Of a stretch of 64,000 nt of DNA, positions 1,098 through 64,000 are shown piece by piece. The stretch's first letter is position 1. Each line of letters opens with the position of its first letter. Position numbers and translations under genes: made by a program. A model generated the notes under the pieces. The model had not been told where the DNA came from and ran no database searches. It saw nothing but the letters and a program-made list of their open reading frames with translations. This DNA is from Carcharhinus amblyrhynchos (lineage: Eukaryota): assembly GCA_965287045.1 (NCBI GenBank), contig OZ336899.1, positions 14,074,001 through 14,138,000 of the forward strand. The letters are read 5' to 3'.

Positions 1098-1252
1098 TCA
1101 AAACCCTCTACTGACAATAACACACTCTCCAACTGAGGGTTAAGTGTCTTCAAACTGAGGCTTCAGTCCAGATCTCTTTTGAAAAGCTGAAGCCCCAGTC
1201 CAAAGCCCCAAAAAGACTGAGAAAAGAATTCTGTTCACATGTGACGTCCTAC

Positions 1253-1446
1253 CTGATTTTCTGTTGGACCATAGCAGCTGTCCTTCGCTTTTGCCTCATT
1301 TTCCCATACTCCTTGTAGCTGCGGTAATACTGCTGGATAAGAACAGCTGCCCGCCGACTCTGCTGGAACTTCTTCTGCTCGTAGTAACTGCGGAACTTGC
1401 TCTGGATCAGGATGGCGGCCAGCGTCATCTTTTTGTAAAGTGCATA
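1253..1446 (-). CDS. CAMTA1: CAMTA exon, IQ motifs (YALYKKMTLAAILIQSKFRSYYEQKKFQQSRRAAVLIQQYYRSYKEYGK...QQKIR)
   Basis: Near-identical to the vertebrate CAMTA1 IQ region; acceptor cttccag|TAT, donor AG|gtagga; 194 nt, phase 0 to 2; gene continues beyond the left edge. Confidence 0.95.
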
Positions 1447-1748
1447 CTGGAAGAGCACAGAGGAGATCCCGGTCAGGAAGGGGATGGATGTGGAGAGAGG
1501 GGGACCCTGAAAAGAAAGGTGAATGGGGGCCAGGGTGTGGAGAAGGGTCCCTCATTAAAATGATCACCCCTGCCTCAATCACCCCAGCCACAGCAACCTC
1601 AATATTCCAGGACCTTCACTTCAACTGGCTACCAACAAGGCTAAACAGCAACAACAGAAAGAACATAAGGAATTGGAGTGGGCCCCAAACCCAAGCTTGC
1701 TTCACCAGTCAGCAAAGACATGAGTGATCCTCTCTCACAGCTCCACTT

Positions 1749-2562
1749 AGAGTCATAGAGATTTACAGCATGGAAACAATCCCTTCAGCCCAACTTGTCC
1801 ATGCTGCCTTTTTTTTTAAACCCCTTAGGCTAATCCCAATTACCCGCATATGGTCCATATCCCTCTGTACCCAACTTACCCATGTAACTATCTAAATGTT
1901 TCTTAAAAGACAAAATTGTGCCCGCCTCTACTACTACCTCTGGCAGCTTGTTCCAGACACTCACCACCCACTGTGTGAGGAAATTGCCGCTCTGGACACT
2001 TTTGTATCTCTTCCCTCTCACCTTAAACCTATGCCGTCTAGTTTTAGACTCCCCTACCTTTGGGAAAAGATATTGACTATCTAACTGATTTGTGCCCCTC
2101 ATTATTTTATAGACCTCTATAAGATCACCCCTCAGCCTCCTACGCTCCAGAGAAAAAAGTCCCAATCTATCCAGCCTCTCCTTATAACTCAAACCATCAA
2201 GTCCCGGTAGCATCCTAGTGAATCTTTTCTGCATTCCTTCTAGTTTAATAATATCCTTTCTATAATAGGGTGACCAGAACTTTACACAATATTTCAAGAG
2301 TAGCCTCGCCAATGTCCTGCACAACTGCAACAAGTCATCCCAACTCATGTGTTCAATGTTCTGACCAATGAAACTAAGCATGTTGAATGCCTTCTTCGCC
2401 ACTCTGTCCACCCATGACTCCACATTCAAGGAGTTATGAACAAGTACCCCTAGATCTCTTTGTTCTGTAACTTTCCCCAGTGCCCTACCATTAACTGAGT
2501 AATTCCTGCCCCGGTTCAATCTACCAAAATGCATCGCCTCGCATTAGTCTAAATTAAACTCC
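1749..2562 (-). mobile_element. CR1-type LINE 3' fragment
   Basis: 234-aa ORF with YCVKFWSP..KDI, RRLRGDLIEVYKI and VVSVWNKLP; tandem ctctatga tail. Confidence 0.9.
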
Positions 2563-2778
2563 TCCCTTTTCCCGTATATCCCGCAATTCCCTGCGTGCCT
2601 ATAAAAATAATGGAGGGGAAAACATAGATATCTTTGAATCAGTAATCATTGACTTTGATACCTCATTTACTGTTTTCCTGCCTGGATAAAGCTGGCCAAC
2701 ACATATAGGCTGCAAGCTTAACCTACAACCACCTACTAGAAAACATATACAGGTCAACGCCCAACTGCAGTGTACCAT

Positions 2779-3053
2779 GGGGTTGCCAACTCTGCCTGGA
2801 TGTATTCCTGGAGCTTTCATTGCATGGCCAATTGGCCAAGCATCCCAGTAAATTTTTATTTTCAAAATTTTATAGCTAATTAAAAAAAGCATTCACAGGA
2901 AATGAAAAATAAACACACCATTTTTCAACATTCTCTTGCGATTTTTCTCCCCCTGTTTTGCTCACTGCTTTTGCAGAGTGGCGGTGGTGATGAGGGGGAT
3001 TAATCTTTAATTCCAGGAGACTCCAGGATGATCCTGGAGGGTTGGCAGTCCCT
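2779..3053. mobile_element. Old MITE with GGGTTGCCAAC-type TIRs (hAT-Blackjack-like)
   Basis: ggggttgccaac ... gttggcagtccct; diverged copies at ~26470-26550, 27068-27455, 34048-34317 and 52900-53146. Confidence 0.55.
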
Positions 3054-4098
3054 ATACTCTACATTGATCATTCTGGATAAGTTGAAGCCAGAGTGTGGAG
3101 GCATCAAAGCTCACTCTATTGGCAGGCGGCTCGCGAAAGACTAGTTTAGCATTTTCCCTGCTGGCAGCAGGAACATGCGGCTGTGCGAGAATCCTTGCGT
3201 TGTAACAGGATTAGATACAAATAGCAGTGACCCCACCACACACTGAGAGACCGCTTCCATATCGCAGATAAACTCACTTGAATCTACGAGAATAAGATTC
3301 AGTTTGTGGGAGAAGCTGGGCTTGTTCTTCTGGGAGCAGAAAAGCTGAATGGGAGGTTTAATACATTCCAAGTCCTGGAAGGGGGGGAGGTTGGTTTCAT
3401 TGAGTAAATAAGGAAAATTATTTCCATTGCCAGGGGCATTGTTAGCCAAAGAACAGAGATTTAGCGGCAGAAGAAACTGGGGATGGGAGAATGGTTGGTG
3501 ATGGGGGATGATTTAGGTGCTGAGGGGTGTGGGGGTGGGGAGGGTGTTGGGAGGGTTAGAGCAAATTGTTTCTTCTTGCGCTGTTATGAGCTGGAAAGCA
3601 CTGCCCGAAAACACTCTGGGAGCAAATTCAGTTATAACTTTCAAAAGGGAATGGGATAAATCCTTGACAAGGAAACACCTGGAAGGCCATTGGGAAAGAA
3701 CAGAGGAGTGGGGCTAATTGGAATGCTTTTACAAAGAGCTGGCTTGCACAGGCATGATGGACCGAGTGGACTCCATCAATGCTGTATCATTCTATGATGA
3801 GGTCAGGGCAGGCAGATCCCAGTTTTTTTCCCTCTCACTCTGCACTGCAACCTGTTCACAAAGCAACACTTTCTTTTAAAATGAAGATGAAACCACACAC
3901 TGTTGCATGGTGTCTGAAGGCTTCAATGAACAGAAAAGATTTGCTGCAAATCCACATGGACAGTGGCTGGACAAGCAGTACGTGTGCACACAATGCTTGA
4001 GGCGACTGTGTCTCGGCTCAACATATTTGGAAGTACAGGGCAGAAGGGGTGACAGGAAAGACAACATTTCTGTTTTTTTATTCCATGGCAGCACAATA

Positions 4099-4408
4099 GT
4101 TTAAAGTTTATTTTCGTTAGTGTCACTAGTCGGCTTACACGCCGACACACTGCAATGAAGTTACTGTGAAAATCCCCTAGTCGCCACATTCCGGTGCCTG
4201 TTCGGGTACACTGAGGGAGAATTTAGCACGGCCAATGCGTCTGACCAGCACGTCTTTCGGACTGTGGGAGAAAACTGGAGCACCTGGAGGAAACCCATGC
4301 AGACACAGGGCGAACATGCAGACTCTGCATTGACCCAAACCGGGAATTGAACCCATGTTCCAGGCACTGTGAGGCAGCAGTGCTAACCGCTGTGCCACTG
4401 TATCGCCC
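4099..4408 (-). mobile_element. V-SINE, aaacttt-type tail
   Basis: Full head (A/B-box-like), V-domain and tail. Confidence 0.85.
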
Positions 4409-4998
4409 AATAATTATGCAGATAGAGTAAGATGAAGTGGGTTAGGAGGAGGTTTGAGTGGACCATAGCACCAACATCAAACAGCTGGGTTGAATGGCCT
4501 CTTTCTGTGTTACAAATTCTATGCCATTATATGTATGTAATTTTAATAATTTTGAATGCTTTGTTTAAATCTACCCATAACCTTCTCTGCTCTAAAGACA
4601 GCAAGCTCATCTTCTCCAGTTCTCCAATAACTGAAGTCCCACATTCCCAATCCCATTCTAATAAATCTCTCCTGCACTTTCTAAAAAGTGAGAAGGGCTC
4701 ACACAAAAATAGCTTAATCTGATTTTAATTATAATTCGAATGGAACATTTTGATTTGTTCTGGAAGGATTCTACTCGGCATATGGAGACAGCAAGTAGCA
4801 ACCCCAACGTCACTGCCTTCAGAGATCTCAATATGGTGCTCAGAACTTAAAAAGTTTCATTAAAAAATAGCAACACAAGCTTATTCCCAAATACCACTTC
4901 ATAACGCTTGGTCGCATAGTGACTGACAAAGAAATTGCTGAATATCACAGCAGTGTGCAATGAATCAGACCAACATTTCATTTGTGTAATTGCATTAC

Positions 4999-5019
4999 CT
5001 TCAAGGCTATCCATGTAAG
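4999..5019 (-). CDS. CAMTA1: CAMTA 21-nt microexon encoding LTWIALK
   Basis: ctttgcaag|CTTACATGGATAGCCTTGAAG|gtaatg; phase 0-0; peptide recalled from vertebrate CAMTA1/2 isoforms between ...YRKYKQ and YALYKK. Confidence 0.9.
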
Positions 5020-6007
5020 CTTGCAAAGTGAATACAATAGACCATTAGTACCAGAGAAAAAAGAACTCTTCAATTCAAGAGGGGAGCTTGTTCTAATTGG
5101 TGCTGGGACACAAGCTGCATCTATACAACGTCTTAACTTAGAAAATTATCCCAAAAGTACTTCCCAGAGGCATAATCTTAGCCAAAGAAAGGATGATTAG
5201 TACAGCTCAATCATTCTGCTTTATGATTGACAGCATACAGTTCAAAAGAGTGTGTTTTAAAGAGAGTCTGGGAGGAAGAGAAGTGGGGTGGGGGTGCTCG
5301 AGAAGCATGAGGATTAGGGCAACTTTTAATCTCTTAAGCACAAATATGGTTGATCTTTGGTATTCTGAAGCCATGTGCCAATTCACCATCCCTTTGTCAG
5401 AAGACCGAATAAGAAGAGGACAAGACTATTCAGTCCCTTAGGTTTGTCCTGTCAATGCAGTTAGATCATGGCTGGCCCATCTTGGTTCCATAACCTTTAA
5501 TTTTCCTTGCCTGTCAAACCAAAACATATTGAATCGACTGGATTGGGGACCATTGGTTTCACACCCTTCCAATTTTATTCGCTGTTGAAGCTAGTATTGG
5601 ATGGAGTGTAAAACCAGTATTCCACTAGATCCCCTGAGATTTCTGTCCATCGAGATAGGTTATAATTCACCCCACGTTCCCCCAGCTCTTCACATCTAGG
5701 GACCTGACCAAATTATGTCAATTCAGGGGAAAAGCAGGCAGCGGAAGCCAATTTAAATCTCACTGAACTGATATCCAAGATCAAGTTCTACAGGACACAG
5801 GCAGGGTTAAACTGTGCAGCAGAAAATTCACAAACAAATCAGGAAATAGGCATTGGATGGCCCCAAGATCAAAGCTTTTGAAAAAAAAAATGATTGGAGG
5901 AAGAAGAAATGGCAAAGGGTGGCGGAGCTAGACTTCTGGGAATTATTCTCAGTAATAGAAGACAGCGCAGCATGTCTTGAATTCAACACAGTGAGAATGC
6001 AGAGAGG

Positions 6008-9982: not shown

Positions 9983-10054
9983 CTGTTTATATTTTCTATA
10001 GCAGCGCTGAATGACAGCAACAGCCATTTCCTGTTGTTCCCTGAAAGGACGTCC
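9983..10054 (-). CDS. CAMTA1: CAMTA exon, IQ-like motif (GRPFREQQEMAVAVIQRCYRKYKQ)
   Basis: Not in the ORF track; tttttttag|GGA...CAG|gtaaaa; 72 nt, phase 0-0; matches CAMTA1 GRPLREQQEVAAAVIQRCYRKYKQ. Confidence 0.95.
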
Positions 10055-11485: not shown

Positions 11486-11732
11486 CTTGTATTTCCGGAA
11501 GGCAGTTTGCACCAGCTTGGCAGCCTCGTACAGCTCTCTCTGCTCGTGGTCTGACAAGGTCAGCTGGGCAAATTCATTCTCCATCTTTTCACTGGTCGAC
11601 GCGCTCAGGAACTCGGACCAATCGGCTGCTGACGGGAGAGTGGGTTTCTCAAAATTAACCTCGCTGCTTGGTGACAAGGCGGGGCTTTGGCTTGCATTGG
11701 AGGGAGGAGTCAGGGGCTCACTGTACAAAGAC
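11486..11732 (-). CDS. CAMTA1: CAMTA exon (SLYSEPLTP...SAADWSEFLSASTSEKMENEFAQLTLSDHEQRELYEAAKLVQTAFRKYK)
   Basis: ttctag|G TCT, AAG|gttaga; 247 nt, phase 2 to 0; conserved CAMTA pre-IQ segment. Confidence 0.95.
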
Positions 11733-13010: not shown

Positions 13011-13868
13011 AAGAAAATTGTTAAAAGCAGGACACCTTTAATAGATTTGTAAATTAAGTACGCGTACTGATACCAAATGATTAGCTGAGCTGGCTCCTTC
13101 CTTTAACTGATGGGGTAGTTAGAGATCTGGGTCAAAACTCTGATTTCCCCTTCCATAAGCCAGCAACACCAAAGATAACCGGTGACCTGAACATTGTTCC
13201 TACAGGGAGCACTGTGTTGCCCCATATTACAACAGTGACTATATTTCAAAAAATCTTAACTGATTGTGAAGCATGTTAGGATGTCCTCATAGTGTGAAAG
13301 ATACGATACAGACACACATCTATTTTTTCTTGAGTATTTTCTCCAAGCAATTGAGGCAAGTCACGTCAGCAGTGTGCCAAACCATAAATGAGTGGGGAGT
13401 GTCGATTGGACATTCAGCTTCTGATTGTTAACTCCCTAACAATGCAGTTGATTCAACTTGACTCTTGTGAACTGGGTGAAATATAGTTAACAAAGAACGA
13501 CCCTGCAGCTAGGAACTGACTGGAGACACATTCCAAGCTCTCAACCTTCCTCCCTTGTTCCATCTAACTTCCAAGTCCAGTGCTCCACATGCTCTTAGTT
13601 CTACCCTAGAAGTTGTGTGGAAATCAATCCTCATCATCATTTTATCTCCACCTCAAATCTTATTTTGTCCCTGGGTCTTAAATCTGTGGAGCTCACTTCT
13701 CTGTGTCTCCTCTGCCTCCTACAGTCAAAAGCCTGAGCTTGACCAATCACCTAATTATTGCCTCTTGAGTCATTCCTGTTTCCTCCCCTCCTTTGAATAT
13801 TTACTGACTTCTTGTGGACTTTCGTCTAGGTTCATTCATAATAACGGAAGGTTTCCCAAGCTACTGAC

Positions 13869-14056
13869 CGAAGCTGAGATAAGCTGGGTAAATGGTCCAC
13901 ATCTGCCAGGTAACTGGCCAACCAGGTCAAGGTGGTGTTCACACTGGGGATGTCCCCTCGCTCAGATAACGAAAATTCCATAGGGATGAAATTTTCCCGT
14001 TTGATCCTGTCTGGTGTGGCTTCAATGATCTGCTCAGCCAAGGACATCATATTAGC
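13869..14056 (-). CDS. CAMTA1: CAMTA exon (ANMMSLAEQIIEATPDRIKRENF...WLASYLADVDHLPSLSQLR)
   Basis: cctcag|GCT, CG|gtcagt; 188 nt, phase 0 to 2; conserved IIEATP.RIK and WLASYL motifs. Confidence 0.93.
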
Positions 14057-14360
14057 CTGAGGAAGCAAAAGCAATTTAATTATATTTTCCTTTGTCTTCC
14101 TAACACCATAGTATTAAAGTTTTAATGTTGGGCTTTGGAAGTTAAGATGAGCAAAGGGCATTGGCATCAGCAACTCAATTGTTGAAGAATCTTTCAGAAT
14201 GTTCTGGAAATCTGTCTTTCAAAAATACTGCTGATCAATGTTACATTTTATGATATCTGCATCACGTGACCTAATATCCACAATAGAGAAATAGGCCACA
14301 AGCAGATGCAGCTATATAAACACCACAGAATAGCACGTAACCTTTATAGCATGTAACCTT

Positions 14361-14856
14361 GGCGAGGCAATGGCATAGTGGTATTATTGCTAGATTATTA
14401 ACCCAGAAACTCAGCTAATGTTCTGGGACCCAGGTTCGAATCCCGCCATGGCAAATGATGGAATTTGAATTCAGTACAAAAAAAAACTGGAATTAAGAAT
14501 CTATGGCTGACCATGAAACCATTGGTCGATTGTCAGAAAAATCCATCTGGTTCACTAATGTCCTTTAGGGAAGGAAATCTGCCATCCTTACCTGGTCTGG
14601 CTTACATGTGACTCCAGAACCACAGCAATGTGGTTGACTCTCAACTACCCTCAGGCAACTAGGGATGAGCCATAAATGCTGGCCAGCCAGCGATATCCAT
14701 GTCCCACAAATTAATTTTTTAAAATGTGGTTGATTTTCAATTGCCCTCTGAAATGGCCTAGCAAGTCACTCAGTTCACCACCACCCTCTCATGGGCAACT
14801 AGGATGGATAAATACTGGGCAGCCAACAATGCCTGCGTCCCATGAATGAAAAAAAA
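14361..14856 (+). mobile_element. tRNA-derived SINE, third family, followed by a second tail
   Basis: A-box-like tggcatagtgg, B-box ggttcgaatccc; tail repeated at ~14725-14856. Confidence 0.8.
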
Positions 14857-15302
14857 CTCTCATTTCATTTTCTCCTGAGGGTGCTGATTCATGCTGTGAT
14901 ATGACTCCTTCAATTGAATGGCCATTCTTCATTTAAACCTAACAACAGGATTATCCACCAAATCTGATCCTGTCATCCACACGCACGCACACTTTCCAGT
15001 GTGTGTTGCTGGGCGGGAGTTAGGGGCAGGAGGGCTGGCTGCCCTTACTTCCCTTCTTGGGCTCAGCCACTGAAGCCAGTAATCCAACAATTGTTGGCCC
15101 AGCTGCAATCAGGCAGCCTGGTTCAGACCAGTGCTTGAAACGGGGGCCTCTCCTGGTTCCAGCCCACTTGGCTTGGATATGGGGTCCTGGTAAACACAGC
15201 AAGAGTCATCTTTTCTTGGGAGAAGACGTGGGCAAATATAATGAAAGAATAAATGGGATGATCCTGTGCGCAGCTGAAGGTTACTCATTCTGCGTCTCAT
15301 AC

Positions 15303-15841
15303 CTGCAAGTCATCCATATGTTGGAGACACTCCTCTTTCTCCTTGTACGAAAGTAATTCTGCATCCACCATGTCCCTCTCTGATAACATCAGAACACTGA
15401 TGTCCTGCTTCTGTTGTATCCTGTGAGCAATGGACCCAGCGCTGAGACCTGAGACCTTCCTTATCACCACAGGCTGCCCCGTCGTAGTCTGTGCTGCCAC
15501 ACTGACATAAATCTCCTTCTGGCTCCACTTTGGACTCGTCTGGTTCCCGACATTTCTGCATCCGGAGGCGAGGGGCAAAGGGAATTCTGAGGTATGTTGG
15601 GAAGATTCCCTGGGACTCTTCCTCTCCATTTTGGAATCAATTGCATCGGGGGGCGGTTGCTTGGGGCTGGAGCTCAGTTTGGCGGTGTTCTTCTGCTCCA
15701 GGTTTAGTGGCGGGGGAGATGATTTGTCTTGCCTGGAGTGGAAGTGTTCTGTGTTTAGTTTGTGTTTCTTAGAAGCTGGGAGATCCCTCTGGCTGTCATT
15801 CCCATGGCACTGCAGGGATTCCGATCTCGGCCGTCTGAGAT
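15303..15841 (-). CDS. CAMTA1: CAMTA linker exon (DLRRPRSES...KKHKLN...CLQHMDDLQ)
   Basis: tgtattag|AT, CAG|gtatga; 539 nt, phase 1 to 0; LRRPRSE, KKHKLN and MDD.Q anchors shared with CAMTA1. Confidence 0.9.
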
Positions 15842-15966
15842 CTAATACAATAAAGAAGGCCCTGTGTTTATTTACCTCATAACATATCCTCCAGAGACAT
15901 CTCAGAAACGTGTCACATAGAATTATAGAATCATACAGCACAGACAAAAGCCACTCAGTCCATCAT

Positions 15967-16277
15967 GGGGCGGTACAGTGGCCAGTGGTTAGCACTGCTA
16001 CCTCACAGCGCCAGGGACCCAGATTTGATTCCAGGCTTGGGTCACTATCTGTGTGGGGCCTGCACGTTCTCCCCGTCTCTGTGTGGGTTTCCTCCAGGTA
16101 CTCTGGTTTCCTCCCACAGTCTGAAAAACAAGCTGGTTAGGTGCTTTGGCCATGCTAAATTTTCCCTCAGTGTACCCAAACAGGTATCAGAGTGTGGCAA
16201 AGAGGGGGTTTTCACAGTAACTTCATTGCAGTATTAATGTAAACCTACTTGTGGCAGTAATAAATAAACTTTACTTT
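15967..16277 (+). mobile_element. V-SINE, aaacttt-type tail
   Basis: Full-length copy ending taaataaactttacttt. Confidence 0.85.
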
Positions 16278-16959
16278 GAAAGAGCTAGCCAACTAGTTCT
16301 AGCTGCCTTCTCCTTCTTCATCTGCCAGCAATGTTTTCCCTTTATGTATTTATTCAACTCTTTTTTTAGAAGCTAGGATTGAATCTGCTTCCACCATCCT
16401 TTCATGAAGTGTATTTCAGGAGAAATAGTTTAAGAGCATTCCTGTTGCTATGGCTACATTCTGTACAGAATGCAGAATTATGAATTGAGGGAAAAGCAGA
16501 CCACAAAGGGAGAGGATGTTAATTATAACTGACACTGAACTCTTGACAATTGGACCCATAGGTCCACAAGAAGTGGAGGGGGTCATTCAGTTCCTCAAGC
16601 CCATTCTGACATTAAAGACATTCTGGCTGATCTGAACCCAAAGCAGCTCCATGTGTGGCTTTCAATGGTGGCTGCCTCACACGTGCCTCTAATAAATGTG
16701 TGTTAACCAAATCCTAGCAACCCAGAGGTCAAATCCCACCATTAGAGTGCTTCATCAGATTGGGATTAGTTGCTAGAATGCAGATTAAAGACTCTGACTG
16801 CCTTCCATGCCTTCATCCAGGTGACCTTCTATCATGTACCTCATCAGCCTACTAAGCAGGAATAAGATATTCGCTGGAGGGTGTCCACTGATGTTCATAC
16901 AAGTGCTTTCCCAAATTGAGATTCGGTTAGCCACAGAACAAGGACTGACTCTGGTATCT

Positions 16960-17304
16960 TAGAGTCTTTACATGCAGAAGGAGGCCATTCATCCCATTGA
17001 GTCTGCACCAACTCTCTGACTGAGTATCTTATCCAAGCCCTCTACCCTGTTCTATCCTTGTAACCCCACACCTTTACCATGGCTAATTCATCTAAACTAC
17101 ACATCTTGGACCACTAGAGGCAATTTAGCATGGTCAATCCAGCAAATGTGCACATCTTTAGACTGTGAAAGGAAACCAGAGGAAACCACACAGACATGGG
17201 GAGAATGTGTAAAATCTATACAGGCAGTCACCCAAGGTTCGAATAGAACCTGGGTCTCTGGCGCTGTGAAGCAGCATGCTAACCACTCTGCCACCGTGCT
17301 GCCC
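16960..17304 (-). mobile_element. HE1-like V-SINE with CR1-like tail
   Basis: Head gggcagcacggtggcagagtggttagc, V-domain, tail. Confidence 0.8.
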
Positions 17305-18102
17305 ATTGTCCTCATCTGTATGCCATTTGACCGAGTTGGGCAGATTGGGGAACATTCTCCATGCTCTGGGGGTGGGTCACATAGAGATCTGGTGTAGATC
17401 CAAAGAAAACAGCGGAGGTGTAGAAACTTGTCACGGGGCAGGCAGAAAGAGAGCGACAGACCAACTGCTCCCTCAGAAGCAGGAGGGTGATAACCCAGGA
17501 ACTGCAGAGAAAACAGAAGAGTTCATTTTGTCACCACAAAAGGTTTCAACCTGGCTCAGCCTTGGGAAACAGACCTCTGCTTTCTGGGGCAGTTGTAAAG
17601 ATTCGAAGCGAAGAAATTTTCAAGTTGATCCTAATGTACATGGCACAACAGAAAAATCTGTATATCATATTACTCAGAAAGATCACAGGATGGTTAATGT
17701 TGGGAATAAAAACAATATATTGAGAGGCAGAAAGCACTCATGGAGGCCCACTGCTAAGGCAGAATAGAGGGAACTTTATTCTGATTCTTACCTGTGCTAT
17801 AATCAGCCTAGTGTATTTGATGGGCAGTGGAGAGGAAACTTATCTAATGCATGCTTTACCTTTGCTGGATGTGTTTCATGGGATATGATGAATGGAGATT
17901 TGCTTTGTGTCTGATCTGGGTTCATTACACCTGGGGAGTTTTGCTGCTAACACAGGGTTCTCAAAATAGAATTGTTCCATTCCCTGGCACGACATCCAGA
18001 CTTTAGCTCATATAAAATTCACCGGAATAAAAAAAAGACAGAGGTCCATGAATACACAAAGTAGTGATTGCTAAATACACTGTCGAAATGAATAAAGTGC
18101 AC

Positions 18103-18421
18103 CTGTGGGAGGAGATGTGCTGATGTTCTTCTGGGGCTCCTGACTGCTGTTACTGCTGCTGTTCCATTGTCCAATCCAGCCATCACTCCCTGACTTTGCA
18201 ATGGGAGAGCAAACCATTCCAGGCGTTTGAGGAAGACCAGGGAGCTGTGACTCATCTTCTCTCTGTAGTTCTTCCAGATACTCTGCCAACTTCACGTGCC
18301 CTCTTGAGCGGGCAATTGTCAGGGGCAAACGACCCAGTGAATCAGGGATGGAGAGAGCTCGGTGGTCCCACTTATATAGAACAACAGCTGCTTCAGTGTG
18401 CCCCAATGCACAAGCCCACAT
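18103..18421 (-). CDS. CAMTA1: CAMTA ankyrin-repeat exon (MWACALGHTEAAVVLYKWDHRALSIPDSLGRLPLTIARSRGHVKLAEYLEELQ...)
   Basis: caccag|ATG, G|gtgcac (weak donor but correct phase); 319 nt, phase 0 to 1. Confidence 0.93.
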
Positions 18422-19379
18422 CTGGTGAAAAGTAGAGGGACAATTATTTTATTATTTCACATCCTTCCCAACAGAGTGGACAAGTAAAAAATTAGCATTG
18501 GCTCTCAGTTGCAACTGCACTTTCTCCAGTGTTGGCAAGTTGATGCGATCCTTGCCAAAGGACAAAAACATGATATAAATGCTAATTTCTCCTTTTTTTA
18601 ATGATCACTAACCCAACACAATGTGGAGACATTATCTGGAATTTTAGTGCCTTGCCCATGCGGGGCGTGTAAAATCCTGCCCGAGGCCAAGGGAGAATGC
18701 TGTTCCGCAAGCCTCAATCACCTCGATTCTGGGTGGGCAAGATGGTCAAGTTCCGGCCATTAGCTGCTTTTAAATAACGGGACAAATATTCCCATTCCAT
18801 TTGCCAAGGAAATGGAAGCTGGCAAGGGACAGACCTTAGAGTGGTCCATTGATCTTGGGCATCCAGTATATGACTTTTATTGTAACTTCCATCTCCTTAA
18901 TCACAGTGAACTATACACATGGATCTGGCAATTCGCCCCAAAGTCAGCAACTGTGAAGACCATTTCTAGCTTCACTTGATAACTTCACACCAAGCAGCAA
19001 CAAAAATCCTGCCTGCTGTTCTAGGAGCTGGAGCTCCGACATCAAGAGAACAATGACAATTTCCATTTATAGGTGGCTGTTAACATGGTAAAACCATCTC
19101 AAGCTGCTTCATAAGATGCAGTTGGATAAGATTTGACACGAAATCATACAAGGAGATATTAGGACAGATGCTTGGTCAAAAAGATTTGAAGGAGAGTCAT
19201 AAAGAAGGAGATGGAGAGGCAAAGGTTTGGGGAGGGAATTGCGGGCTTTGGGACGAAGACGAGTGAAGACATGGTTGCCAATGGTGAGTGTGAAAGAAAT
19301 CAAGTACAAGGAAGAGACCAGACCTGGAGAAGTCGTGAGATCTCAAAGGCTGTCAGGAATTTAATGTTGGCAAGTGTTG

Positions 19380-20193
19380 GCAAGAGTGAGGTGGTCTACT
19401 TTGGTAGGAATAATGGTAGGAAGGACTATTACTTACGTGGCGAAAAACTGCAGCAGGCGACAGTGCAGAGGGACCTCGGGGTCCTTGTGCATGAGTCGCA
19501 AAAACCCAGCTTGCAGGTGCAGCAGGTGGTCAGGAAGGCGAATGGGATGCTGGCCTTCATAGCGAGGGGGATTGAATATAAAAGTAGGGAGGTCTTGCTG
19601 CAGCTGTATAGGGCATTGGTGAGGCCGCAGCTGGAGTACTGTGTGCAGTTTTGGTCACTGCGCTTACACAAGGATATTTTGGCCTTGGAGGGAGTGCAGA
19701 GGAGGTTTACTAGGCTGATACTGGAGTTGAGGGGGTTGAGCTATGAGGAGAGGCTGAATAAACTAGGCTTGTACTCGTTAGAGTTTAGAAGAATGAGGGG
19801 AGATCTCATTGAGACATATAAGATGATGAATGGGATGGATAGGATAGAGGTGGAGAGACTCTTCCTGCTCAGAAAGGACAGTAGGACTAGGGGGCACAGC
19901 CTCAAGATAAAGGGGGGGCGGTTTAGAATGGAGTTGAGGAGGAACTTCTTCACTCAAAGGGTGGTGAATCTCTGGAATTCTCTGCCCGTTGAAGTGGTGG
20001 AGGCTGCCTCGATAAATATTTTTAAGACGCGGGTTGATGGTTTTTGATAAGAGAGGGGATTAAGGGTTATGGGGAGAGGGCGGGAAAGTGGAACTGAGCC
20101 ACGACAGATCAGCCATGATCTTATTGAATGGCGGGGCAGGCTCGAAGGGCTAGATGGCCTACTCCTGCTCCTATTTCTTATGTTCTTATGTTC
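19380..20193 (+). mobile_element. Young CR1 LINE, 5'-truncated, inserted into an older L2-like fragment
   Basis: ORF KSEVVYFG...QRDLGVLV...RPQLEYCVQFW...NSLP; (tatgttct)n tail; 1-bp loss near the end truncates the ORF. Confidence 0.92.
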
Positions 20194-20426
20194 ATGCAAG
20201 AGGTTACAGAAAAAGGGAGGGGAGAGAACATGGAGGGATTTGAACACAGGGATGAGAATTTTAAGTTTGATTGTTGCTGGGCCGGAAACCCAGTGTTGGT
20301 CAGCAACAGTATGAATTCAATTGTAATCTTTTTTAAATAACTTTTCAAGATGTCAATCATCACAGCCTGTTCTGTACAGATTGATCAGCCACAGAGAACC
20401 TATAAAACACTCTCCCATATACTTTC

Positions 20427-20637
20427 CAGTATGAAGTCTCACAACTTGATTGAAATCCAATAGGTTTATTTGGAATCACGAGCTTTCGGAGCGCTGCACC
20501 TCCATCAGCTGAGTCCTGATGAAGGAGCAGTGCTCTGAAAGCTCGTGATTCCAAACAAACCTATTGGACTTTAACCTGGTGTGGTGAGACTTCTTGCTGT
20601 GCCCACTCCAGTCGAATGCCAGCATCTCTACATCATG
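20427..20637. mobile_element. Palindromic Penelope-like remnant (family A) with hammerhead-like core
   Basis: Inverted arms 20432-20510 / 20515-20597; CTGATGA-aggagcagtgctct-GAAA-gcTC at 20516-20544. Confidence 0.75.
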
Positions 20638-20672
20638 ACATACTTTTTAAACAGAGGGGACATTTTACTTAC

Positions 20673-20751
20673 CAGGGGTGTGCAGGAAAAATGATCAACA
20701 TTCAATGGATCCACCTCCAGTTCCAGATCAATACTATCTGCATGTTTTGCA
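20673..20751 (-). CDS. CAMTA1: CAMTA ankyrin exon (AKHADSIDLELEVDPLNVDHFSCTPL)
   Basis: Not in the ORF track; cttttacag|T GCA, CTG|gtaagt; 79 nt, phase 2 to 0. Confidence 0.95.
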
Positions 20752-20885
20752 CTGTAAAAGAACAGACATAAGTTGTTAATGGAGCACTTTCCTTCGCGAG
20801 CCAGCATACTGGCAATTTATCGGTGAGGGTTTGTGAAGGATTCACTCTAAAATATTCTTCCAGGACCTCTTACGCAGTGAGGGAC

Positions 20886-20975
20886 ACAGTAAGAAGTCTC
20901 ACAACACCAGGTTAAAGTCCAACAAGTTTATCTGGTATCATGAGCTTTTGGAGTGTTGGTCCTTTATCAGGTGAA
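20886..20975 (-). mobile_element. Single arm of the Penelope-like family A remnant
   Basis: cagtaagaagtctcacaacaccaggttaaagtccaac...tcaggtga. Confidence 0.75.
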
Positions 20976-21794
20976 TGGCAGTGAGGGACGTGAGATAAAT
21001 CTGTTATCAGATGGGCTACCCTACTTTCTTACCCCTAATCTCCCATCTCTCTCTCACTGTCACATTCTCCCTTTGACTCTCACTTCAATGTGATTATTGT
21101 TTCTCTGAGCTTTGCTTTATTTCCCACACACACCCTCTTCCTCTTCCCGCCATTCTCACTGTCCTTAAATCGGCCCTCTTCATTTTTTCCCATGAGCTCA
21201 AAAGGATGGAACTCCTCACCTCATTAGTCAGCTTTTCACTCACAAGCATCAGGGATTTTCAAACCTGGTGTAACTTTTGGTATATCATTAGCTTGCCAGC
21301 TTGGCTTTACACAGCCTTAGTAGATCAACCATCGAGTGAAGAAACATCCCACTTCACATTGCACTGAAAACCCTTGGTTTCCTTTCCTCAGAATTAAATA
21401 AATATAGAAATTAATATGCCAGAACTTGTTCTAATCAATCTTCCCAATGTAATTATTTCTACCTTCGTTGTACACAGACACCTGAGTACAGTAACAATCA
21501 TAGAATCCCGAAGGAAGCCATTCGGCCCATTGCGCCTGCACTGACAACAGTCCCACCTAGGCCCTATCCCCGTAACCCCACGTGTTTACCCCGCTCTGCA
21601 AGTTCAATCCCACTGGACAAAGTTCTTGACCTCAGTTGCACAGCCGGGATGCTGGGGATATAACCAGGCAAATCTGCAACTCCTGCAACTGTATTCCAAC
21701 AACGTTCCTGTCCAGAAAATTACTCCCTATTATATCTTCAAGCCAAACTCCCAATCGGAGTAGCTGTCCAAGAAAACAACAAAATAAAATGAAG

Positions 21795-22088
21795 TGGCAC
21801 GCTGTTACAGTGGTTAGCATTGCTGCTTCACAGCACTAAGGACCTGGTTCAATTCTAACCTCGGGTCACTGTGGAGTTTGCACATTCTCCGCATGTCTGT
21901 GCGGGGTTTCCTCTGGGTGCTCCAGTTTCCTCCCACAGCCCAAAGTTGTGCACCTAAGTTGGCCTTAGTGTAAGGGCAATTAATAGGATAAATATGTGGG
22001 CTTACAGGGATGGGACCTGGGTGGGATTGTAGTTGGTGCCGGCCCAATGGGCTGAATGGCCTTCTTCTGCACAGTAGGGATTCTATGA
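21795..22088 (+). mobile_element. HE1-like V-SINE with CR1-like tail
   Basis: Head, V-domain and gggattctatga tail. Confidence 0.8.
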
Positions 22089-22222
22089 TCAATGAAAACA
22101 AAACAGTAATGATACAGCAACAGACCACACCTCATCCATTTGGTTTTAATCACTGTTACCCTTGTTGACTGTGGAAGCACATGTACCCCTCACCTCATCC
22201 TTGGAGCCTGCTTGTTGCTTAC

Positions 22223-22413
22223 CGCCATTTGATGAGTGTCTGGATTAGTGTGGCGTAGCCCTGGGCAGCTGCCAGATGCAGGAGGGTCATTCCTCGGAAG
22301 GTCTTGGAGTGGATGAGGTGTTTCGATTTGACCCAGCAGGCACGGCTCATCATCTTCTCACACACCAGCACCACGCGGTTCTCGAAGGAGCAGCTGGCCA
22401 CCCTGGATGCACA
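22223..22413 (-). CDS. CAMTA1: CAMTA ankyrin exon (CASRVASCSFENRVVLVCEKMMSRACW...GMTLLHLAAAQGYATLIQTLIKWR)
   Basis: gtgcag|TGT, CG|gtaagc; 191 nt, phase 0 to 2; almost identical to CAMTA1. Confidence 0.93.
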
Positions 22414-22826
22414 CTGCACATTGGGGTGAAGAACACACACTGAGATCAGTCCTGTCATGTAACACTATGTTCAGCTCAGAGGGACAATAACAACTATAGC
22501 AATCATACAACATTGTTGGTGGGACTGGAAGATCCCATCAGCAGGAATGGCTGGAAAAGTCAGGCCATTGTTTAAATGAAACATTAAAAGGACGCCCAGT
22601 CCCCGAATGTAAAAGATCCCATGAAGCTATCAAGAAGAACAGTAGAGGTGCTCTCAATGTATCATGACCATCATTTATCCTCAACTTACAGCTAAAAACA
22701 GATTACCTGTTCATTATTGCACTGCTAGGTGAGGGAGCTTGCTGTGCACAAATTGGTTTCCACATTTACTACACTGCAACTCTGTTTCAAAAGTACTTAA
22801 TTGGCTATAAAGCCAACAGCCAATTT

Positions 22827-23134
22827 AGGGACAGCACGGTGGCACAGTGGTTAGCACTGCTGCCTGACAGCGCTAGGGACCCAGGTTAAATTCACTGACT
22901 GTGTGGAGTTTGCACTTTCTCCCCATGTTTGTGTGGGTTTCCTCCAGGTGCTACGGTTCCCTCCCATAGTCTAAAGATGTACGAGTTAGGTTGATTGGCC
23001 ATGATAAATTGACTCTAGTATCGGGGGATAAGCAGGGTAAATGAGGGTTACAGGAATAGGGCGTGGGTGGGATTGCGGTTGGTGCAGATTCAATGGGCTG
23101 AATGGCCTCTTTTTGTACTGTAGGGATTCCATGA
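22827..23134 (+). mobile_element. HE1-like V-SINE with CR1-like tail
   Basis: gggacagcacggtggcacagtggttagc head; V-domain; tail. Confidence 0.85.
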
Positions 23135-23382
23135 TCTCACTCTGAGATAGCTAAAGTTGTGAAAGGCACTATATAAATAGAAGTTATTTCATTTTTCTGT
23201 AAGTCTCAAATCGTATCCCCTTTCCTATTACGTGTACTATCTGACATGTACTCTCTTAGTCACCTCCACTCATTTCATGCTCATTGTGTGTGCAAATCAA
23301 ATATTTAGACAGCCATGACAGGCGATCACCCAAACATGAGTCCGTTGCCTTTGGATCCCAAAGATCTCACGGTGTGCCGTAC

Positions 23383-23516
23383 CTGCGCCTGGCTGTTGCC
23401 ACCCCCTCCTCCGTTACCCCCTCCAGTCTGCTGGTGGTGCTGGTGAGATCCCATCTCCGACATCCGCCTTTCCATTTGTTCCAGGCGCTCCAAGATGGAC
23501 ATCCTGAACTGGTTGT
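23383..23516 (-). CDS. CAMTA1: CAMTA post-TIG exon (DNQFRMSILERLEQMERRMSEM...GGGNSQAQ)
   Basis: ttttccag|AC, CAG|gtacgg; 134 nt, phase 1 to 0. Confidence 0.95.
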
Positions 23517-23635
23517 CTGGAAAAGAACAAGAACAAGCTTGGGTCAGCACATCAAAAACCAAATCACAGTGGTTCAGTAGAACCACCCCTGGAGAAATCA
23601 AAGCCTCTACTTTGTTAGTGAGTAACATAAAAGCT

Positions 23636-46437: not shown

Positions 46438-46928
46438 AAACAGTCTCCAACTACAATGGGCCATGCTTGGTAAAATTCTGATTTATAATCCACTTCTTTG
46501 ATGCTAGGTTAAATATTTGAAAATCTATTGCTCCTCACCACCTTTGGGCTCCTGTAGCTTTAATATGTAACAGGTGAAAAAGCAAACTTTGTTTAAAGAA
46601 ATATATTACAACATTACATGACAAGATGCAAGTTTTCACCTACATCTCCATGCGGTGGATAAAGGTGTGCTGCCTGCTTGGCTGTAATAGCACATTTAAG
46701 AGAGGAAAAGTAAGTACAAATAATGGAATAGCAAAGCACAAAGGAAGGACCAGATGGGACCATAATTTTTACACCAGCTTTTCATCTCAAAGAATTGGAC
46801 ACACTTCCAAAAATAGGCTGTTGGGACAAAAATTTTCTTTGCTTGTTGGGTATAAAGCCTAGTGTTTGGGTTCTCTCAATCTACTTCCTGGTGGTCTTCA
46901 GACCATAGCACAAACCATCCTTGGGTAG

Positions 46929-47626
46929 GAGCTTTACTCTGTATCTAACCTCATGCTGTACCTGTCCTGGGAGTGTTTGATGGGGACAGTGTAGAGAGAG
47001 CTTTACTCTGTATCTAACCCCGTGCTGTACCTATCCTGAGAGTGTTTGATGGGGACATTGTCAAGAGAGCTTTACTGTGTATCTAACCCGGTGCTGTACC
47101 TGTCCTGGGAGTGTTTGATGGGACAGTGTAGAGGGAGCTTTACTCTGTATCTAACCCCATGCTGTACCTGTCCTGGGAGTGTTTGATGGGGAGTGTAGGA
47201 AGAGCTTTACTCTGTATCTAACCTCGTGCTATACCTGTCCTGTGAGTGTTTGATGGGAATAGTGTGGAAGGAGCTTTACTCTCTACCTAACCCCATGCTG
47301 TACCTGTCCTAAGAGTGTTTGATGTGACAATGTAGAGGGAGCTTTACTCTGTATCTAACCCCGTGCTATACCAGTCCTGGGAGTGTTTGATGGGGACAGT
47401 GCAGAGGAAGCTTTATTCTGTACCTAACCAAGTGCTGTACCTATCCTGGGACTGTTTGATGGGGACAGTGTAAAGGGGGCTTTACTCTGTATCTAACCCT
47501 GTGCTGTACCTGTCCTGAGAGTGTTTGATGGAGACAATGTCAAGGGAGCTTGACCCCATGCTGCACCTGTCCTGGGAGTGTTTAATGGGACAGTGTAGCG
47601 GGAGCTTTACTCTGTAGCTAACCCCC
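46929..47626. repeat. 69-bp minisatellite, ~10 copies (gagctttactctgtatctaaccccgtgctgtacctgtcctgggagtgtttgatggggacagtgtagagg)
   Basis: Unit starts at 46931, 47000, 47069, 47137, 47204, 47273, 47341, 47410, 47479, 47548, 47604. Confidence 0.95.
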
Positions 47627-57205: not shown

Positions 57206-57766
57206 TTGTCCCTAAATCACTGTAAATCTGTGCTCTCTTCTTGATCCTTCTAAGAGGGGGGACAGTTTCTCCCCATCTACTCTGTCCAGCCACATTCACC
57301 CTCTTGAGATTAAGGTCAACCTTCAAATGGTTTCTTTGACTACTTTTTGTGCCAGGTTGAACTGTAGGAGACAGGTTCAATCAAGGCATTTAAGAGGACA
57401 TTAAATGATTCCTTCTATTCAAGTAATGTGAAGGAATACGGAGAAAAAGTAGGAGAATGGCACTAAGTCATGAGGCTCCTTGGACAGCCGGTGCAGACAT
57501 GATGGGCCAAATGGCCTCTTTCTGCACTGTAACAATTCTGTGATGCTTGGGGGAGGAATCTGAACTGTGATTCCTGTTTCTGGTTGCTATCCAGCTACTC
57601 CTATTAGATTGTAAGATGGATAAAGGGTAGGCAAGGACTGGGTTTGGTTGTGCTACCTGCCAGGATCAAATTGCCTGGCAACACAATGCCTTGGTTCACT
57701 GCTGAAAAATGGCTATGTGAGGTGAGATAGTGGTGGGCTGCTGGCATCAATGGAGCACACCTCAGT

Positions 57767-58810
57767 AAGAGTCAGCACTTTCAGGAGAGGGGCTGAACCC
57801 CAGTGAGAATCAGCACCTTAAGGAGAGGGACTGAACCCCAGTGAGAGTCAGCACCTTCAGGACAGGGGCTGAACCCCAGTGAGAGTCAGCACCTTCAGGA
57901 GAGGAGCTGAACCCCAGTGAGAGTCAGCACCTTCAGGAGAGGGACTGAACCCCAGTGAGAGTCAGCACCTTCAGGAGAGGAGCTGAACCCCAGTGAGAGT
58001 CAGCACCTTCAGGAGAGGAGCTGAACCCCAGTGAGAGTCAGCACCTTCAGGAGAGGGACTGAGCCCCAGTGAGAGTCAGCACCTTCAGGAGAGGAGCTGA
58101 GCCCCAGTGAGAGTCAGCACCTTCAGGAGAGGAGCTGAACCCCAGTGAGAGTCAGCACCTTCAGGAGAGGAGCTGAACCCCAGTGAGAGTCAGCACCTTC
58201 AGGAGAGGGACTGAACCCCAGTGAGAGTCAGCACCTTCAGGAGAGGAGCTGAGCCCCAGTGAGAGTCAGCACCTTCAGGAGAGGAGCTGAACCCCAGTGA
58301 GAGTCAGCACCTTCAGGAGAGGAGCTGAACCCCAGTGAGAGTCAGCACCTTCAGGAGAGGGACTGAACCCCAGTGACAGTAGCACCTTCAGGAGAGGAGC
58401 TGAACCCCAGTGAGAGTCAGCACCTTCAGGAGAGGGACTGAACCCCAGTGAGAGTCAGCACCTTCAGGAGAGGGACTGAGCCCCAGTGAGAATCAGCACC
58501 TTCAGGAGAGGAGCTGAACCCCAGTGAGAGTCAGCACCTTCAGGAGAGGAGCTGAACCCCAGTGAGAGTCAGCACCTTCAGGAGAGGGACTGAGCCCCAG
58601 TGAGAGTCAGCACCTTCAGGAGAGGGACTGAACCCCAGTGAGGGTCAGCACCTTCAGGAGAGGGACTGAGCCCCAGTGAGAGTCAGCACCTTCAGGAGAG
58701 GGACTGAACCCCAGTGAGAGTCGGCACCTTCAGGAGAGGGACTGAACCCCAGTGAGAGTCAGCACCTTCAGGAGAGGGACTGAACCCCAGTGAGAGTCAG
58801 CACCTTCAGG
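57767..58810. repeat. 38-bp minisatellite, ~27 highly homogeneous copies (gtgagagtcagcaccttcaggagaggagctgaacccca)
   Basis: 38-bp period; variation mostly limited to ag/ga and a/g sites. Confidence 0.97.
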
Positions 58811-59319: not shown

Positions 59320-60330
59320 GCAAGAAGAGGCGAAGAGAGAGGAGGCAGAAAGAGAGAGAGAGTGGAAGAAGGAGAAAGAGGCAGAGAGAAAGATGCAAAG
59401 GAGAGGAGGCAAGAGGGAAGAGGCAGGAGCCCGTGGGGTGGTGGAGCGCAAAGAAAATTAAGCAGAGTGATGTGGCAGGGAGAGGGAGCAGAGAGAGAGA
59501 GAGCGAGAGCACAGAGAGAGAGCAGCGAAATAGCAGAGACAGAGGACACAAAGGAGGAGCAGAAAGAGGGGGAAGAGAGAAGGGGCAGAGGGAGGTGCAG
59601 AGGGGGCAGTAACAGAAACAGAGAGAGGGGAAAAAAGAGTGGCAGAGAGAGGGCATAGAGAGGGGGAACGCTGATAGAGAAGAGGCAGAGACGAGACAGA
59701 GAGATGGGAACAGGAACAGATAACCCCAGCTTTGGTGTTTCTTCACTCTGTCTCTTTGTTCTTCCTCCATTTTTGTGTACATCTCCTCAATTGTTTCAGC
59801 TCTCTTACTCAACCTTTCTTTTCCTGTTTTCCTGTGTTCTTTTAACGGATTCTTCTGCCTCCTCTCTCTTTTCCCTTCTCTTTCTATCCCCTCTCTCTGC
59901 CACCTCTTCTTGAGCTATTTCTCTGCCCTCCCCTTTGTGCCCCCTCTCCCTGCCCCTCCCTCTGCTCTATTTCTGCCTCCCTCTCCACCGCCCTCTCTTT
60001 CTGCCCTCCTCTCCATGCTCCCTCCTTCTGTCTCCTCCCTGTGTCCTTCTCACTGCCACTTCTCTCACTGCCCCTTCTCTCCCTACTCCCTCTCCTTACT
60101 CCTCTCGCTATGCCCACTCTCTGCCCCCTCTTTGCCCCCACCCCCTCCCTTTGCCTGCTCTGCCTCCCAACTTCCTGCTCTCTCTCTCTGCCCCATTCCC
60201 TCTCTCTGCCCCCCTGCCCCAACTCTCTGTTCCCCTCTCTACCCTATCTTCCTCCGCACACTTCCTGCCCCTTCTCTGCCCCATCTCCTTCCCCAATCTC
60301 CATGCCCACCCACTCTCTCTGCCCTCCTCT
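59320..60330. repeat. Purine-rich tract switching to a pyrimidine-rich tract (switch near 59725)
   Basis: GA-rich at 59320-59720, CT-rich at 59740-60330. Confidence 0.85.
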
Positions 60331-63190: not shown

Positions 63191-64000
63191 CTGCTCCATC
63201 TCCCTGTCCACTCTCTGCTTCCTTCTCTCTTGGATTCAGCGACGGGAGTGGAAAATATCGCAAAAAGGCCAAAGTTGCACATGATGTGAATGTTGTGGTC
63301 GTGGTGGCCTTCGCCCCTCCCCGTTGCCAGGGTGCGCTTGACAACGTTCAGCCTCAGGAACATTATTTAAATTTATTAACGTACTATTATCCTGAATCAC
63401 CCACCCCGCCAGAAAATTCAACCATGCCAGTGGGACCGCAGAACGGCGTGAAACCTGACTGGTCTCCCAAAATGTGCACTTATCAAGCTCACCTCCTGGG
63501 GTGCTCAGGGGAATGCAGCGCTCGAGGTGACAGAGAGGGGGCCTGGGTGGGATTGTGGTCAGTGCAGGCTCGATGGGCCAAATGGCCTCCTTCTGTACTG
63601 TGGGGATTCTATGAAAGGTAAGGGACCAGAGGGTAAAGTGAAGCTCAATTCAGGGTTAAACTGGAGGGCAGTGCCAGAGTATTGCCAGGCTCAGTGCCGG
63701 GAGAGTATAAGGGCGGTTCCAGGATGAACTCCTTTGTGCTGGGGTGGTCTTTAGAAATGGTGGCCCAATCCTTGAGTTGCTGGTGGGGTGGGCAAATCCG
63801 AGACTGCCCCGCCAACGATATGCTGTGGGACCTGTTTGTTTAAGATTTTTCCTCAAAATCCAGGACTATATAGTGAAGAAATCCAATGTTGCTGTCAGCG
63901 GCTTTAATGCCGGATTTCCCAGCTACCATCGACCTTTGCCAACTTCTGGGAAAAATTTCAACGAGAGAAGAAAAATGAGGAATGAAAAACAGAGAGTGAA

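Follow-up and report, generated by a model that had tools for sequence, protein, structure and literature searches.

A 21-nt cassette microexon of shark CAMTA1, found from hagfish to human, lies inside the second IQ-like motif

Two 21-nt CAMTA exons have already been catalogued in human brain. Supplemental File 2 of PMC4317164 (2015), a set of 145 human brain-specific micro-exons defined by a median PSI of at least 25 in brain and an 80th percentile of at most 10 elsewhere, contains one such exon in CAMTA1 and one in CAMTA2, the former (chr1:7809830-7809851) lying upstream of a 31-nt exon of the same gene. In the tables of PMC7935315, a human 21-nt CAMTA2 exon (HsaEX0012302) rises with SRRM4 from a PSI of 1.9 to 99.6 in HEK293, from 2 to 80 in DU145 and from 0 to 100 in HeLa cells, and its mean PSI is about 1 in the seven of nine non-neural tissues that have values; the mouse 21-nt Camta2 exon shows a mean difference of -18.8 in the nSR100 mutant table of PMC4387716, read here as mutant minus wild type. 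For mouse Camta1, a frame-preserving microexon was a hit of a 2026 deletion screen (PMC12868881), in which its deletion or skipping changed neuronal gene expression. The targets described for that screen all preserve the frame and encode 3-9 residues, criteria that exclude the 31-nt exon and thereby point, by elimination, to the 21-nt Camta1 exon. Gene, length and exon order suggest that these published 21-nt exons correspond to the LTWIALK exon described below, which is already annotated; its listing as a neural exon and its genetic study in mouse have very probably been done as well. The available portions of PMC12713644, PMC5314398 and bioRxiv 2024.11.28.625692 concern other CAMTA events or leave the exon unnamed, and the VastDB row HsaEX0012296 (PSI 0 to 39 with SRRM4 in SH-SY5Y), which is given without gene or length, was not used.

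The shark counterpart lies in the window, the whole 64,000-nt stretch of Carcharhinus amblyrhynchos DNA analysed here, which carries the ankyrin and IQ exons of a CAMTA gene on its minus strand; close homologues have CG-1, TIG, ankyrin and IQ regions, of which the CG-1 and TIG exons are not part of the window. In a quick maximum-likelihood tree of 25 rows, this gene groups with CAMTA1 (support 99), its closest row being Scyliorhinus CAMTA1 at 98% identity, and a second gene on contig C769 groups with CAMTA2 (support 100); reciprocal tblastn returns the same two identities. Searching the genome with the exon downstream of the microexon gives two hits, one in the window itself and one on C769 (80% identity). 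The features of the locus are as follows, in window coordinates.

4999-5019, minus strand: cassette microexon of CAMTA1 encoding LTWIALK in phase 0 (sequence, database inserts and contig depth).
5020-5022, minus strand: 3' splice site AAG, with the AG at 5021-5020 (sequence).
5023-5025, minus strand: UGC at -6 to -4, candidate SRRM3/4 element (sequence; putative role drawn from bioRxiv 2024.09.17.613571).
5044-5050, minus strand: TACTAAT, candidate branch point with the A at 5045 (-26) (sequence; aligned with CACTAAC in the paralogue).
5053-5065, minus strand: U/C-rich tract TTCTTTTTTCTCT, upstream of the branch-like motif (sequence).
4993-4998, minus strand: 5' splice site GTAATG, with the exon ending in AAG (sequence).
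9983-10054, minus strand: upstream exon, 72 nt, encoding IQ2 positions 1-10 (IQRCYRKYKQ).
1253-1446, minus strand: downstream exon, 194 nt, contig-covered, encoding the end of IQ2 when the microexon is skipped, then IQ3 and IQ4.
11486-11732, minus strand: exon with IQ1 (VQTAFR).
13853-23517, minus strand: six more CAMTA1 coding exons of the ankyrin region and linker, with approximate tblastn bounds (23517-23383, 22419-22222, 20765-20670, 18421-18104, 15842-15300 and 14059-13853).

No further CAMTA1 coding exon was found at window 23517-64000, and an intron of about 40 kb therefore lies above 23.5 kb. Several short shark isoform models start just before the 23517 exon, which suggests an internal start at that point. 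Elsewhere in the window, tandem arrays occupy 46928-47625 (ten copies of 69 nt), 57759-58810 (28 copies of 38 nt, 94% matches) and 60257-63215 (188 copies of a C-rich 16-nt unit), and the last of these accounts for the extreme strand skew of the window. About 6.8 kb past the low end of the window (L007:3170-3200, minus strand) lies a second CAMTA1 exon, 31 nt long and frame-shifting (PLVDHRLYKR), which switches the C-terminus and has a TGCATG about 55 nt downstream; this exon is already known in human (PMC4317164) and zebrafish (PMC12626424).

The microexon reads CTTACATGGATAGCCTTGAAG at 5019-4999 and is flanked by AG and GT. The elements that the initial annotation described, namely the AG with a proximal TGC, the TACTAAT motif at 5050-5044 and a pyrimidine tract, are all present in the sequence. 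It falls within the 3-27 nt class of microexons, keeps the frame through two phase-0 junctions (with exons 10054-9983 and 1446-1253) and has canonical splice sites. An AAG acceptor is weaker than CAG or TAG, and the closest AG upstream of it lies at -48. The UGC stands between the candidate branch point and the AG with a CU-rich element upstream, an arrangement of low specificity: of the 5,049 minus-strand AGs, 21% have a TGC no more than 20 nt away, and for this reason the TGC alone is weak evidence. TACTAAY at -45 to -10 is found for 0.2% of minus-strand AGs. Additionally, a UCUC within the tract at 5065-5053 loosely resembles the UCU/CUC half of the bipartite enhancer described for microexons, and no RBFOX motif TGCATG occurs within 300 nt on either side of the microexon. 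A further TACTAAT lies at about 5203-5197 on the minus strand, roughly 180 nt before the microexon. Quaking recognises ACUAAY too, so one or both TACTAAT copies may be regulatory instead of branch points.

Protein models and public contigs together identify the microexon as a real, alternatively spliced cassette exon of shark CAMTA1. LTWIALK occurs in 78 of the 120 best homologues listed (the best 120 of 1,803), sharks included, and the 43 cartilaginous-fish CAMTA1 models comprise 24 with the insert, 18 without it and one without the IQ region; both forms are annotated within a single species in S. canicula, Stegostoma and Mobula hypostoma. These counts contradict the earlier expectation that gene predictors would miss the exon. 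Four of 22 listed public runs, all contigs that are presumed to be RNA and carry no tissue labels, were compared with window 1200-5400, a stretch that does not contain the upstream exon, and junction use was deduced from contig ends and depth sums, the microexon joint not being among the 15 of 81 joints listed. Specifically, run X1 has a 1,959-nt contig at depth 9.02 that covers 1252-1446, and its depth near the microexon is confined to two 141-base bins (0.51 and 0.96), which match the values expected (0.512 and 0.960) for that same contig covering 4999-5021, that is, the exon plus two bases common to the end of the upstream exon. Runs X15 and X4 reach 1449, reading CAG as at the end of the upstream exon, with zero depth on the adjoining intron and on the microexon; X4 reaches just one base beyond and lends weak support to skipping, and run X2 ended before the junction. 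Inclusion is compatible with the contigs of X1, skipping with those of X15 and, weakly, of X4. Dispersed repeats at about 1700-2600 and 4150-4400, probably SINE or LINE pieces, are covered by contigs to a very great depth in each of the four runs.

The exon also has a copy in the paralogous gene. A degenerate pattern of AG, LTWIALK codons and GT has two matches in the 2.92-Gb genome, one per CAMTA paralogue, and the reversed control pattern has none; the second match is the same microexon in shark CAMTA2 (C769:64130-64150), where a CACTAAC branch-like motif stands at the aligned place, the acceptor is TAG, a pyrimidine run follows the branch motif and the closest TGC lies at -56. Among cartilaginous-fish CAMTA2 models, the insert appears in one of 18, as LTWIARK. 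Both the missing proximal TGC (none in the 55 nt next to the acceptor) and the single model with the insert contrast with human CAMTA2, whose exon responds very strongly to SRRM4. The initial annotation placed the same peptide in mammalian CAMTA isoforms, and it is indeed found in database proteins of both paralogues: human CAMTA1 proteins occur with and without LTWIALK, and human CAMTA2 (O94983) carries it at the same junction. A 2026 review (PMC13663517) gives a human CAMTA1 sequence that lacks the peptide and a CAMTA2 sequence that has it, and its available text makes no remark on an alternative exon.

Conservation of the insert extends to hagfish. The 332 vertebrate-type junction proteins, which are redundant isoform models and not independent species, divide into 165 with LTWIALK, 159 with no insert, six with W-containing variants and two with unrelated inserts, so that 165 of 171 homologous inserts are identical and the Trp is kept in all 171. 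In the hagfish Myxine glutinosa, three CAMTA isoforms have LTWIALK and two do not, and the hagfish, CAMTA1 and CAMTA2 sequences form a three-way split without branching order in the quick tree of 25 rows. By parsimony, presence in hagfish and in both paralogues places the exon before the paralogue split and before the cyclostome-gnathostome split; an origin at least as old as jawed vertebrates, as first proposed, was correct in that gnathostomes have the exon and understated its age. A pre-vertebrate origin was rejected, as no LTWIALK-type insert occurs among 52 invertebrate-type sequences, including amphioxus (four models), starfish (two) and scallop (nine). The IQ2-IQ3 spacing of these 52 is 23 in 47, 20 in four amphioxus models and 19 in one sponge. 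In a single Ciona intestinalis model the junction holds VSILPIK, a 7-mer unrelated to LTWIALK and missing in C. savignyi, and it is treated as a probable gene-model artefact because its initial V resembles donor read-through. Other CAMTA arrays vary in their own ways: in hagfish (Myxine and Eptatretus) a 22-residue insert between IQ1 and IQ2 gives a spacing of 45 against 23, and amphioxus CAMTA has five IQ-like motifs with an IQ2-IQ3 spacing of 20. The presence of the exon in hagfish and both paralogues, together with its location inside IQ2, is what this analysis adds; a search of part of the literature, outside most subscription journals and several supplements, returned no paper on the hagfish or paralogue age or on the IQ2 position.

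Within the protein, the four IQ-like motifs begin at 11512, 10012, 1407 and 1338 (VQTAFR, IQRCYR, IQSKFR and IQQYYR). As computed from the flanking exons, they stand exactly 23 residues apart without the exon, in agreement with the initial annotation, and the spacing changes from 23/23/23 in the skipped form to 23/30/23 in the included form. The further claim that inclusion alters only the middle spacing holds for the step from 23 to 30 and fails for the motif itself: the junction falls after IQ2 position 10, and the insert therefore lies inside IQ2 and rewrites positions 11-14 from YALY to LTWI. The motif table of PMC4076516 counts positions 11 and 14 among those that define an IQ. None of the four motifs matches the canonical form [FILV]Qxxx[RK]Gxxx[RK]xx[FILVWY], since G7 is missing in all four and R/K11 is present only in IQ1, and all four fit only the IQ-like class of Table 1 in PMC4076516; PF00612 scores above its cut-off in five of six homologues scanned, the sixth reaching 19.9 against 20.3 bits.

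By the definitions given in PMC4076516, the canonical Ca2+-dependent calmodulin motifs touching the junction increase from two in the skipped form to 14 in the included form. However, 384 of 2,520 permutations of the insert do equally well and one intronic pseudo-exon yields more still (18), so the gain shows hydrophobicity and not a tuned register, and this control rules out motif counts as proof of a designed calmodulin site. The new motifs include a Trp-anchored 1-8-14 motif that depends on a shark Leu: the segment at 1446-1420 (minus strand) reads KKMTLAAIL in shark CAMTA1, compared with KKMTQAAIL in most tetrapods and in CAMTA2, and the Leu completes the motif in the included form only. 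AlphaFold2 was applied to bird CAMTA1 fragments with and without the insert; a helix spans the junction in both, at mean pLDDT of 50 and 61, and the models were dropped as structural evidence on account of this low confidence. No CAMTA IQ structure is present among the eight PDB sequence matches at E <= 1, the best of which are weak matches to myosin V tandem IQ chains (E 0.03-0.09).

Collectively, the locus is probably best read as an optional exon inside IQ2, likely neuronal and likely under SRRM3/4 control, that is predicted to change how calmodulin seats on the IQ array. By analogy with the human and mouse counterparts, the weak acceptor and displaced pyrimidine tract would make skipping of the microexon the default, with its inclusion in neurons promoted by SRRM3/4 through the UGC. 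Judged from sequence only, the seven added residues, if they continue an ideal helix, would set IQ3 and IQ4 10.5 Å farther from IQ1 and IQ2 with a rotation of -20 degrees, and the insert, besides exchanging YALY for LTWI, would add Leu, Trp, Ile and Leu anchors of the Ca2+-calmodulin type. Coupling between neighbouring calmodulins might thereby be loosened, the middle of the array might become more Ca2+-sensitive, and the calmodulin feedback of CAMTA could be tuned in neurons. In worm, the four IQ motifs of CAMTA mediate repression by calmodulin of its own gene (bioRxiv 2020.09.14.296137). Altered calmodulin occupancy through spacing and new anchors is the most likely consequence predicted from these features; the literature searched, outside most subscription journals and several supplements, contained no calmodulin-binding test of the two isoforms.

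The insert might instead act purely as a spacer, the mechanism of the initial annotation: two more helical turns would separate IQ2 from IQ3 and disrupt contacts between calmodulins, with no role for the side chains. The helical geometry given above fits this, the invertebrate-type IQ2-IQ3 spacing never exceeds 23, the tandem IQ chains of myosin V are the nearest, if weak, PDB matches, and, according to a review, how tightly calmodulin binds an IQ depends on the one next to it. A neutral spacer, however, would be expected to drift, whereas the inserts are nearly all identical with an invariant Trp, and this one is located within IQ2 itself, which makes the spacer alone an unlikely explanation. 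A comparably low probability attaches to the proposal that the hydrophobic peptide forms a surface for a partner other than calmodulin, such as an intramolecular ankyrin contact, a dimer contact, a transport factor or a cofactor. Its near-invariance would suit such a surface; moreover, worm CAMTA with all four IQ motifs mutated leaves oxygen-avoidance behaviour, a main phenotype, intact (bioRxiv 2020.09.14.296137), and PMC13663517, in its available text, describes experimental validation of human CAMTA-calmodulin sites as lacking. Against this, calmodulin is the best-documented ligand of the four-IQ array at whose centre the peptide lies, and no alternative partner was identified in the present analysis. 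Altered seating of calmodulin remains the preferred reading.

On the regulatory side, the shark exon is likely included mainly in neurons and likely controlled by SRRM3/4, as its human and mouse counterparts suggest. Broad or partial inclusion, or control by other factors, would make it no neuronal switch, and several observations lean that way: ES cells include the mouse Camta1 microexon at a basal level of about 56 PSI (PMC12868881), a CAMTA1 row is missing from the 314-exon HEK293 SRRM4 target list of PMC7935315, the zebrafish neural-exon table of PMC12626424 lists for CAMTA1 only the 31-nt camta1b exon and no 21-nt one, and proximal TGCs are common on the strand, whereas the shark CAMTA2 copy has its closest one only at -56. 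Yet the human CAMTA1 21-nt exon satisfied the brain-specific definition of PMC4317164, the UGC, found in about three quarters of SRRM3/4 microexons, is described as helpful and not strictly required for the SRRM4 response (bioRxiv 2024.09.17.613571), and shark databases and contigs often show the skipped form; this alternative is improbable, somewhat more so than the two above. The intron of 8,536 nt contains 25 AG-21nt-GT candidates, 18 of them open, among which only the LTWIALK one combines a proximal TGC with a branch-like motif. That the exon is a chance pseudo-exon of this long intron, as those 25 candidates might suggest, is already refuted by conservation, the peptide being identical across vertebrates and present in the paralogue with contig depth exactly on the exon, and has a negligible probability.

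A bolder and distinctly tentative extension of the preferred reading, less probable than its negation, is that the exon arose once in a vertebrate ancestor before the CAMTA1/CAMTA2 split, has hardly changed since and, in neurons, turns the middle of an apo-calmodulin array into a site for Ca2+-calmodulin that is anchored by the Trp. If true, SRRM3/4 would directly control the feedback through which calmodulin regulates its own gene, and this would account for the transcriptional change seen on deletion of the mouse Camta1 microexon. The exon itself is catalogued and the shark copy adds little to that; a peptide constant from hagfish to human, in both paralogues and in a calmodulin-binding motif of a neurodevelopmental-disease gene, nevertheless makes a binding comparison of the two isoforms worthwhile.

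Compared with the described systems, the shark exon belongs to the same gene as the human CAMTA1 and mouse Camta1 microexons and shares with the human one its length and its order before the 31-nt exon. With the SRRM3/4 neuronal programme of 3-27 nt exons it has in common length, frame, UGC, weak acceptor, displaced pyrimidine tract and deep conservation. Its length equals that of the CAMTA2 microexon (HsaEX0012302 and MmuEX0009028), an SRRM4/nSR100 target, whereas the shark CAMTA2 copy differs from shark CAMTA1 in its TAG acceptor, in the tract that follows the branch motif and in having no TGC nearer than -56. Beyond the CAMTA family, splicing edits the calmodulin-binding helix of myosin-1B, which has 4-6 IQ motifs, much as proposed here for CAMTA1, and PMCA4 likewise has a splice site inside its calmodulin-binding domain. 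In CAMTA1, by contrast, splicing leaves the number of IQ motifs unchanged and inserts seven residues into one motif of a transcription factor.
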